This document shows, in pieces, positions 33,859 through 34,395 of a DNA stretch of 64,000 nt. Location: sequence record PQ471516.1; one strand, given 5' to 3'. Numbering within the stretch: the first letter of the stretch is position 1; each line of letters begins with the position of its first letter. Position numbers and translations under genes: made by a program. Under the pieces are notes generated by a model. It was given only the letters and a program-made list of their open reading frames with translations, did not search any database and was not told the origin of the DNA. This DNA comes from Escherichia phage Turkey5.

Positions 33859-34395
33859 ATGTTAAAAGATTTTTATAAAAAACATTCCGAGCGTGTAAAA
33901 GCATTCTTTGGAATCTCATTCCTGTGCTTAGTGTTCGCAGCAGGGTTCTTTAGCTATGATTCATATAAAACAGATGAACCACCAGCAAACACTGCTCTTG
34001 AGAAGCTTAAAAGCAAACTACATGAACGTGAGTTGAGTGCTGGTACTCATATGCTACGTGGTAAAGCATACCGCTTCGATTACAGTACTGATAACTTTGA
34101 TAAGAAAGTTTGGGTAATCCTGAACGTGAAGTTCAAAGAAGACAAAGTGTACTTAGGAGACACTTACTCTATTGTACTGTCATATATCGGTACTGATGCA
34201 GATGGTCTTGACTATTATTACAAAGGTCATCATTACGTCAAGGGTATCCCTGAATTACAAAAAGAAGGATATTACCTAGATTATCTGGTTATTCATGACC
34301 CAGCACGTAAGGCAGTGTCAGTTAATACTACCCCAAGTGGGAACCAAACTGGTGTACCAAACACATTTATAGGAACACTAGACCCAGTTTTCTAA
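33859..34395 (+). CDS. Membrane-anchored hypothetical protein
   Basis: N-terminal hydrophobic helix AFFGISFLCLVFAAGFF; RBS GAGGT; followed by terminator. Confidence 0.55.
   Translation: MLKDFYKKHSERVKAFFGISFLCLVFAAGFFSYDSYKTDEPPANTALEKLKSKLHERELSAGTHMLRGKAYRFDYSTDNFDKKVWVILNVKFKEDKVYLGDTYSIVLSYIGTDADGLDYYYKGHHYVKGIPELQKEGYYLDYLVIHDPARKAVSVNTTPSGNQTGVPNTFIGTLDPVF

Follow-up and report, generated by a model that had tools for sequence, protein, structure and literature searches.

A putative early cassette for a membrane-anchored protein between divergent late promoters of an Asteriusvirus jumbo phage

Why should a small gene stand alone, apparently with transcription signals of its own, where two structural operons of a phage meet? 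The question is raised by an open reading frame (ORF) of 178 codons at positions 33859–34395 (plus strand) of Escherichia phage Turkey5 (sequence record PQ471516.1), of which a stretch of 64,000 nucleotides (nt), hereafter the window, was analysed. Our results strongly support the ORF as a genuine, selectively constrained gene, and they support as strongly that its unit is an accessory cassette between divergent late promoters, in a slot that is empty in most related jumbo phages. Modelling strongly supports the prediction that the product is an inner-membrane protein with one signal-anchor helix, a basic cytoplasmic N-terminus and a strand-rich periplasmic domain. What this protein does is a matter of tentative interpretation: our best guess, with a probability of about 0.3, is superinfection exclusion by an envelope protein made early, and we weigh it below against its rivals.

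The gene and its slot

The window belongs to the Asteriusvirus (Rak2/PBECO4/121Q-like) jumbo phages. Over the region it is 99.0% identical to vB_EcoM_JNE01 (JNE01; 355,583 bp), and it is about 75% identical to phages of the PBECO4/121Q/fEgEco12 type. Turkey5 is only distantly T4-like, and a preliminary description that argued from the T-even phages therefore started from a mistaken premise. The Asteriusvirus group has been described as strictly lytic (PMC13070987).

To the left of the ORF lies a gp26-like baseplate-hub gene on the minus strand (32947–33783; Pfam T4_baseplate, 1.4e-25; PHROG ‘baseplate hub’). To its right, and like the ORF on the plus strand, follow the gene for a virion or tape-measure-like protein of 743 amino acids (aa) (34507–36738; phrog_14121), a T4-like portal gene, which is the second gene downstream of the ORF, and head genes. 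The ORF had been placed opposite the late operons; this holds for the hub gene and the other minus-strand tail genes, from which it diverges, but the 743-aa, portal and head genes are co-directional with it.

The coding sequence (CDS) specifies a bitopic membrane protein of 20.4 kDa from an ORFan family. It exists as first described, starting with ATG and preceded at 6 nt by the plus-strand Shine-Dalgarno sequence GAGG (33849–33852), read directly from the sequence; phage A4 has AAGAGGA at the equivalent place. By an estimate from base composition, ORFs of 178 or more codons would arise by chance about 0.04 times in this window of 37% GC. The 22 nt changes between the ORF and its JNE01 counterpart comprise 12 synonymous and 10 non-synonymous ones, which gives a ratio of non-synonymous to synonymous rates (dN/dS) of 0.22. 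In the same slot, A4 encodes a 162-aa protein, A4_3, that aligns over the full length from the transmembrane (TM) helix to the C-terminus at 27% identity (E = 5e-10) and has in common with the ORF the motifs FGI-F, K..L..REL, YIG..A.G.D.YY and a C-terminal G.P..T....L[DE]P.[FY]. The slot is likewise filled in A4-like contigs from metagenomes (L013 and L014), which add two A4-type alleles. The low dN/dS against JNE01, together with a full-length A4 homologue in the same slot, marks the ORF as coding; in JNE01 and A4 the gene has already been deposited as ‘hypothetical protein’. Its composition is not foreign: GC content is 38.2%, compared with 37.3 ± 3.1% for the genes of the window, and codon usage and GC at third codon positions (GC3) are typical of the window (rank 10 of 47).

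Among 88 phage records that have the hub gene, two, JNE01 and A4, carry the ORF. In ten relatives (fEgEco12, 121Q, UE-S1, RaK2, EJP2, SE_PL, GAP32, CBB, Hallingskeid and fHe-Yen9-04) the hub and tape-measure-like genes are directly divergent across a spacer of 50–145 bp that contains no ORF, and in a Vibrio phage the genes have another, co-directional arrangement and the slot is absent. Spacers that lack the slot gene measure 130–145 bp in fEgEco12-type phages and 50–70 bp in the outgroups. The fEgEco12 spacer (L002, 4965–5020; compare 33840–33860 and 34430–34455 of the window) holds remnants from both ends of the missing gene: from one, a sequence resembling the leader and ribosome-binding site (RBS), and from the other, the 3' arm and T-run of the terminator, ATGGGTCTTTTTTATTC, which folds into no hairpin. 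Judged from sequence, these remnants are consistent with deletion of the slot gene. Since the hub protein of the window is closer to that of fEgEco12 and 121Q (about 80% identity) than to that of A4 (74%), the simplest history would be that the gene was gained once, where the clade of E. coli Asteriusviruses begins, and was later lost in the PBECO4/121Q/fEgEco12 branch. Alternatively, the cassette may have been exchanged laterally.

The family proved to be small. We ran a word-indexed search of 5.8 billion proteins with the ORF protein, A4_3 and a four-sequence profile as queries, an exhaustive HMMER search of 1.84 billion representatives, and a tblastn search of 50,697 phage genomes. Besides A4_3, the only relatives found among the 5.8 billion and 1.8 billion proteins were three sequences (P0001, P0003 and P0004), and in all protein and phage-genome searches the family consists of the window-type and A4-type subfamilies only. 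One further HMMER match (P0002, E = 2e-4) was rejected as a repeat-inflated local similarity: it is an FN3-repeat protein in which a 35-residue stretch was matched four times, and at most it hints at a beta-sandwich.

The tiny size of the family and the loss with a scar in fEgEco12-type phages are what one would expect if the cassette were a decaying or functionless insertion whose frame is open by chance. We find this barely credible. The dN/dS of the ORF and its native codon usage speak against it, as do a frame, RBS, promoter and terminator that are intact in four diverged alleles, and protein motifs that are kept at 27% identity.

Transcription signals of the cassette

A putative early promoter of the sigma-70 (RpoD) type, TTGACA-17-TATAAT, lies on the plus strand at 33533–33561 and matches the consensus at 12 of 12 positions. 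It is antisense within the hub CDS, where it spans the codons for I-I-D-A-D-G-L-Y-V-N, and is one of four perfect sites in the window, compared with none in 30 shuffles. The site is found where the gene is found. It scores 12 of 12 in the window and JNE01 and in L014, and 11 in A4; at the homologous codons of phages that lack the gene the score is 8 in 121Q and SE_PL, 7 in fEgEco12, EJP2 and GAP32, and 6 in RaK2 and CBB. This computational comparison thus separates 3/3 carrier lineages (11–12 of 12) from 7/7 non-carriers (6–8 of 12). Both hexamers are retained in the carriers while the spacer drifts. The nearest non-carriers differ in the -35 element by a synonymous Val codon, having GTA where the carriers have GTC. 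For CBB and GAP32 three promoter classes have been published, with RpoD-like promoters at early genes and ATAAATA at structural genes, and in Rak2-like phages the RpoD-like promoters are the predicted early class (PMC5259590).

Other candidate promoters fared less well. A weak promoter-like site nearer to the ORF, TTCAAA-18-TATCCT in the intergenic region, is not conserved in A4 or L014. The 12-mer TTCAAAAAATGT, which precedes the ORF as well as the 743-aa gene, was considered as a duplicated promoter and rejected, with three occurrences where two are expected and no conservation in A4. The ‘middle’ promoter motif TGAAACG, described for CBB, is absent upstream of the ORF.

The motif ATAAATA occurs 19 times in the window, and 16 of these copies lie 13–64 nt upstream of a gene on the same strand, mostly a structural one. 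From this distribution it appears to behave as the late-promoter core of this phage, which matches the report on CBB and GAP32 (PMC5259590). The hub gene has its copy on the minus strand at 33822–33828, conserved in fEgEco12, A4 and 121Q. The copy of the 743-aa gene, (C)ATAAATA(T), is on the plus strand at 34467–34473, upstream of the start at 34507, and TTCATAAATAT at this promoter is invariant in the window, A4, fEgEco12 and 121Q. On its own strand the ORF has no ATAAATA, though both of its neighbours have one.

From the position of the sigma-70 site, a transcript would start near 33568 and carry a 5' leader of about 290 nt (33568–33858, plus strand). This stretch contains neither a plus-strand terminator nor a plus-strand ATAAATA. 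The searchable literature holds no transcript data for these phages. The predicted leader is antisense to the first 72 or so codons of the hub gene, to its RBS and to its late promoter, and the transcript would overlap about 250 nt of the 5' region of the hub mRNA. Antisense RNA could therefore be the main product, an early transcript over the 5' end of the hub gene that holds off hub expression until late, with the ORF as a passenger; other late genes of the window also contain perfect sigma-70 sites (10663, plus; 18472, minus), which would be in keeping with this. We nevertheless judge it very unlikely, since the promoter tracks the ORF and not the hub gene, which is present in every phage, the ORF is under purifying selection with a protein conserved across lineages, and the terminator is placed after the ORF.

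That terminator is an intrinsic one on the plus strand at 34417–34454 (hairpin 34417–34447), with a 13-bp stem, a 5-nt loop and a T-run. Its folding free energy is -19.8 kcal/mol (z -5.8), and none of 200 shuffles was equally stable. A4 and L014 have equivalent hairpins with different stem sequences (-20.6 and -20.5 kcal/mol, respectively); the terminator is conserved as structure rather than as sequence. Scans of the cassette for Rfam families and tRNAs gave only terminator-driven noise. The ORF had also been said to sit between terminators. It does have this strong one directly 3' of it, but none on the plus strand upstream; the second terminator nearby (32728–32706) is on the minus strand and closes the divergent hub operon. 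We predict from these signals that the unit 33533–34454 would be transcribed early by the host RNA polymerase, ahead of the structural genes driven by ATAAATA, and that its terminator would shield the late operon by blocking early read-through into the tape-measure and portal genes.

The protein and its possible role

The protein has a single hydrophobic segment, with a 19-residue Kyte-Doolittle (KD19) peak of 2.09 at residues 13–31 and a next-best value elsewhere of 0.48. AlphaFold places a helix over residues 2–33 with a predicted local distance difference test (pLDDT) score of about 75. The single N-terminal TM helix of the preliminary description is thereby confirmed, and hydropathy, charge bias and the AlphaFold helix together delimit a signal anchor at about residues 13–33 (33895–33957, plus strand). 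Four K/R residues among the first 12, which are predicted to be cytoplasmic, and a net-acidic stretch after the helix predict an N-in/C-out orientation by the positive-inside rule. Seven of 19 residues in the helix are small (G, A, S or C); the helix of A4_3 is more hydrophobic (KD19 2.61), with no signal-peptidase motif.

Residues 34–178 (33958–34392, plus strand) form the predicted periplasmic domain of about 145 aa. In two AlphaFold runs it was modelled as one short helix (about residues 44–58) followed by about seven beta-strands, with a pLDDT of only 41–45. The domain contains no Cys; 13% of its residues are aromatic, and Tyr, Asp, Lys and Gly are abundant. No Pfam family matched the ORF at E ≤ 1, and none matched the ectodomain even at E ≤ 10; PHROGs gave nothing at E ≤ 0.1, PADLOC no family for the window-type or the A4-type protein, NCBIfam no accepted match for the slot proteins, and a profile search of PDB sequences no match. 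Weak NCBIfam matches of A4_3 to LolA-like and bacteriocin immunity families (E = 0.009–0.05) cover the hydrophobic helix and are far below the cut-offs. The best Foldseek match of the first model in the PDB had a TM-score of 0.13 and was discarded.

Slot proteins differ strongly between lineages. Between the window and A4, identity is 27% for the slot protein, 74% for the hub protein and 54% for the 743-aa protein, a divergence which, judged from these sequences, would fit an arms race. In the comparison with JNE01, changes are concentrated in the ORF as a hot-spot with sharp limits: it has 4.1% nt divergence and 8 aa changes, compared with 0.06–1.0% and 0–3 aa changes in the flanking genes and a single change in the 186 nt of flanking intergenic DNA.

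An early-type promoter, presence or absence among close relatives and high divergence between lineages fit an accessory early envelope factor. We infer superinfection exclusion from the architecture, the predicted timing and the distribution; library matches and a reliable fold do not contribute. The protein would act at the cell envelope, where its periplasmic domain would hinder secondary phages of the same group from delivering their genomes. On its way through the periplasm, the tail-tip or tape-measure protein of the incoming phage might be the target, or else the hub lysozyme. Small size, a membrane anchor and dispensability are common to known exclusion proteins such as T4 Imm, T4 Sp, HK97 gp15 and lactococcal Sie2009; those of T4 are expressed early, and those of HK97 and the lactococcal phages from the prophage.

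A number of points weigh against this reading. No sequence, profile or fold in any library ties the protein to an exclusion protein, or to any other protein. A fold cannot be assigned, with a mean AlphaFold pLDDT of 44.5 from the single sequence and 41.3 from the four-sequence alignment, and the same architecture is common to many unrelated functions. The carriers represent only two independent clades. The early promoter of the cassette is a putative one, with its use and timing predicted; it lies about 300 nt from the ATG within coding DNA, and constraint on the hub protein could be part of the cause of its conservation. The tempo of change is no more helpful. Overall dN/dS of the ORF is below 1. 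The hot-spot relative to JNE01 suggests allele exchange rather than positive selection, because the synonymous rate (dS) is raised in the ORF as well (0.11, compared with 0.003–0.05 in the flanks). Within an A4-like pair the slot proteins are 92% identical and their neighbours 94% and 89%, so that the slot protein evolves no faster.

Architecture, early-type promoter and accessory distribution would serve equally for another form of early takeover of the host envelope, or for counter-defence, in which the periplasmic domain binds a component of the host envelope. Candidate partners are the divisome or the machinery for cell-wall synthesis, a membrane protease, or an abortive-infection sensor associated with the membrane, so that division would be stopped or a defence neutralised. 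Early bitopic phage proteins of this kind exist: SPO1 gp56 inhibits cell division via extracytoplasmic contacts. Usefulness that depends on the host strain would moreover explain presence and absence among phages with different hosts. This alternative is possible but doubtful, as PADLOC, Pfam, NCBIfam and PHROG gave no match and no particular host target is indicated.

The preliminary description had coupled superinfection exclusion with lysis timing. As a lysis-timing factor the protein would be an antiholin sensor like T4 RI or an accessory holin-like protein like T4 T, with the periplasmic domain modulating the holin. T4 holin T has the topology that is predicted here, a single N-in/C-out pass and a large periplasmic domain, and antiholins are dispensable for plaque formation, which would fit an accessory distribution. 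The ORF cannot itself be the holin, as it is absent from most relatives, and these must still lyse. It has no Pfam or PHROG match, holins included, and no late promoter, and the helix of A4_3 is strongly hydrophobic (KD19 2.61) and, judged by this value, probably unlike that of a signal-arrest-release (SAR) protein. An inner-membrane spanin fits no better: no lipobox ORF of at least 20 aa is present on either strand in 33780–34520, and the ectodomain is predicted to be strand-rich rather than coiled-coil, at a pLDDT of only 41–45. Taken together, lysis timing is unlikely. What survives of the coupled proposal is backed by the membrane anchor, the early-type promoter and the accessory status; it is weakened by the lack of homology, the misidentified T-even analogy and the evidence against lysis timing.

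Two further proposals take up the position of the gene. The ORF lies between the gp26-like hub and tape-measure-like genes and two genes upstream of the portal gene, a place that might suit a membrane-anchored assembly factor for the hub, the tape measure or the portal initiation complex. In T4, gene 51 has a matching position, flanked by gene 26 and the hub genes, and gp40 is bound to the membrane. Such a morphogenesis helper is highly improbable, since the gene is absent from most relatives with the same hub, tape-measure and portal genes and has neither a late promoter nor a sequence match. In the second proposal the cassette would be a dual-purpose early module: a new periplasmic fold would block the tape-measure or tail-tip protein of incoming Asteriusviruses, and the antisense leader would be a timing gate on hub expression. 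This would explain both the position beside the tape-measure-like gene and the allelic diversity, and we regard it as a long shot.

The cassette is a candidate for superinfection exclusion, or for interference with host range, among the Asteriusviruses. These phages are under development against Shiga toxin-producing and avian pathogenic E. coli (STEC and APEC), and such a role would bear on the design of phage cocktails. The polymorphism of the slot supplies natural controls, as JNE01 and A4 carry the gene and PBECO4, 121Q and fEgEco12 do not.

Neighbouring elements and comparison with known systems

The 743-aa virion protein to the right of the cassette carries varying labels in relatives (tape-measure-like, ‘phage infection protein’-like and pore-forming pb2-like). 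It has a low-complexity stretch rich in Gly, Ser and Pro near residues 43–68 and, between the window and the A4 lineage, a highly variable segment around residues 560–700. The mechanically called portal ORF starts at GTG 36722 (587 aa) and overlaps the 3' end of the 743-aa gene; in the JNE01 record the start is the ATG equivalent to window position 36749 (578 aa). Shortly past the portal gene, in the interval 38486–38876, collinearity with JNE01 (L001) is broken by an indel, and the fixed-offset comparison of genes with JNE01 is valid only up to the portal, later genes being out of register.

The three other perfect sigma-70 sites of the window differ in their settings. The one at 4425–4452 (plus) is intergenic and precedes a non-structural ATP-dependent protease/AAA gene (4493–6778). 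The one at 10663–10690 (plus) is antisense inside a giant structural gene of 3346 aa, and a 100-aa ORF (11015–11317, plus) begins about 325 nt downstream of it. The third, at 18472–18445 (minus), lies in sense orientation inside a 1153-aa gene. Taken together, these sites point to transcription units, early or antisense, that lie within late genes.

About 1.3 kb to the left of the ORF, in an ORF-poor gap between an endonuclease VII gene and the hub operon, lies a plus-strand candidate for a structured RNA of about 450 nt (about 32053–32499). It has a conserved extended -10 promoter, TGcTATAAT (32038–32046, plus), and ends in a terminator recognisable from its sequence, GAGAC/GTCTC and a T-run (32478–32499, plus). 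Across the window, A4, fEgEco12, UE-S1, EJP2, SE_PL, GAP32, CBB and Hallingskeid, blocks of the RNA are nearly invariant between genera, while identity of the neighbouring proteins is only about 55%. Of the 88 pairs in the consensus fold, 33 show compensatory double changes; the proportion of paired cells is 97.9%, compared with 36–42% when the partners are slid, and none of 500 shuffles reached the observed values. No Rfam 15 family matched. In IMG/VR a diagnostic motif matched 13 stretches, every one on a large phage contig and most of them in jumbo genomes of about 350 kb, and one more true copy lies on a 185-kb contig of a Silvania (Enterobacteriaceae) assembly; a match in Chloroflexi was dismissed as chance. 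In 121Q a second copy, a diverged paralogue with helices that have changed compensatorily, lies at a distance of about 135 kb. The position differs from those of the PA5oct noncoding RNAs. From sequence comparison the candidate looks like an undescribed RNA family, and it looks more novel than the 178-aa gene. Directly after its terminator a GC hairpin, CCCCTGCGGGGGG within CATTCCCCTGCGGGGGGATGAAAT (32512–32524, plus), is conserved nearly base for base from Asteriusvirus to GAP32, CBB, EJP2, SE_PL and Hallingskeid.

To return to the cassette, the ORF is of an ordinary kind, a small, membrane-anchored, lineage-restricted accessory phage protein, and the sequence searches place it in none of the known families of exclusion proteins, holins, antiholins or spanins. 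Its setting has modest value as a clear-cut case of a predicted early promoter–gene–terminator cassette between divergent late promoters in a virulent jumbo phage, with the promoter inside the reading frame of a structural gene. The closest parallel is the moron, an autonomous promoter–gene–terminator unit between adjacent late genes, of which HK97 gp15, an inner-membrane superinfection-exclusion protein, is an example. Three features are shared on computational evidence: the cassette lies between genes that are adjacent in relatives, has a sigma-70-type promoter of its own and has an intrinsic terminator of its own. Like gp15, it encodes a small, non-essential protein predicted to be in the inner membrane. 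Unlike a moron, it has a native-like composition and codon usage and a promoter inside the CDS of the neighbouring gene, and it belongs to a virulent phage in which there is no prophage expression, so that the analogy is one of architecture and not of lifestyle; gp15 and the ORF have no sequence similarity.

T4 Imm and Sp act on the delivery of incoming phage DNA or on the tail lysozyme. The Turkey5 protein would resemble them in being early-expressed, small, membrane-associated or periplasmic, and dispensable, but it is about twice their size and has no Pfam or PHROG match, and its ectodomain is predicted to be strand-rich whereas Sp is helical. T4 holin T offers a likeness of predicted topology, with a single TM helix, N-in/C-out, and a sizeable periplasmic domain, and the T4 antiholin RI one of accessory nature. 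From both of these the ORF differs in having no sequence match and no late promoter, in an ectodomain predicted to be strand-rich rather than helical, and, in A4_3, in a helix that is probably not of the SAR type. Lactococcal exclusion proteins of the Sie2009 type belong to temperate phages of Gram-positive bacteria, lie at another genomic location and have no sequence similarity to the ORF, but their general plan is that predicted for the Turkey5 protein: an N-terminal membrane anchor followed by a C-terminal extracytoplasmic domain, in a protein of 160–190 aa.

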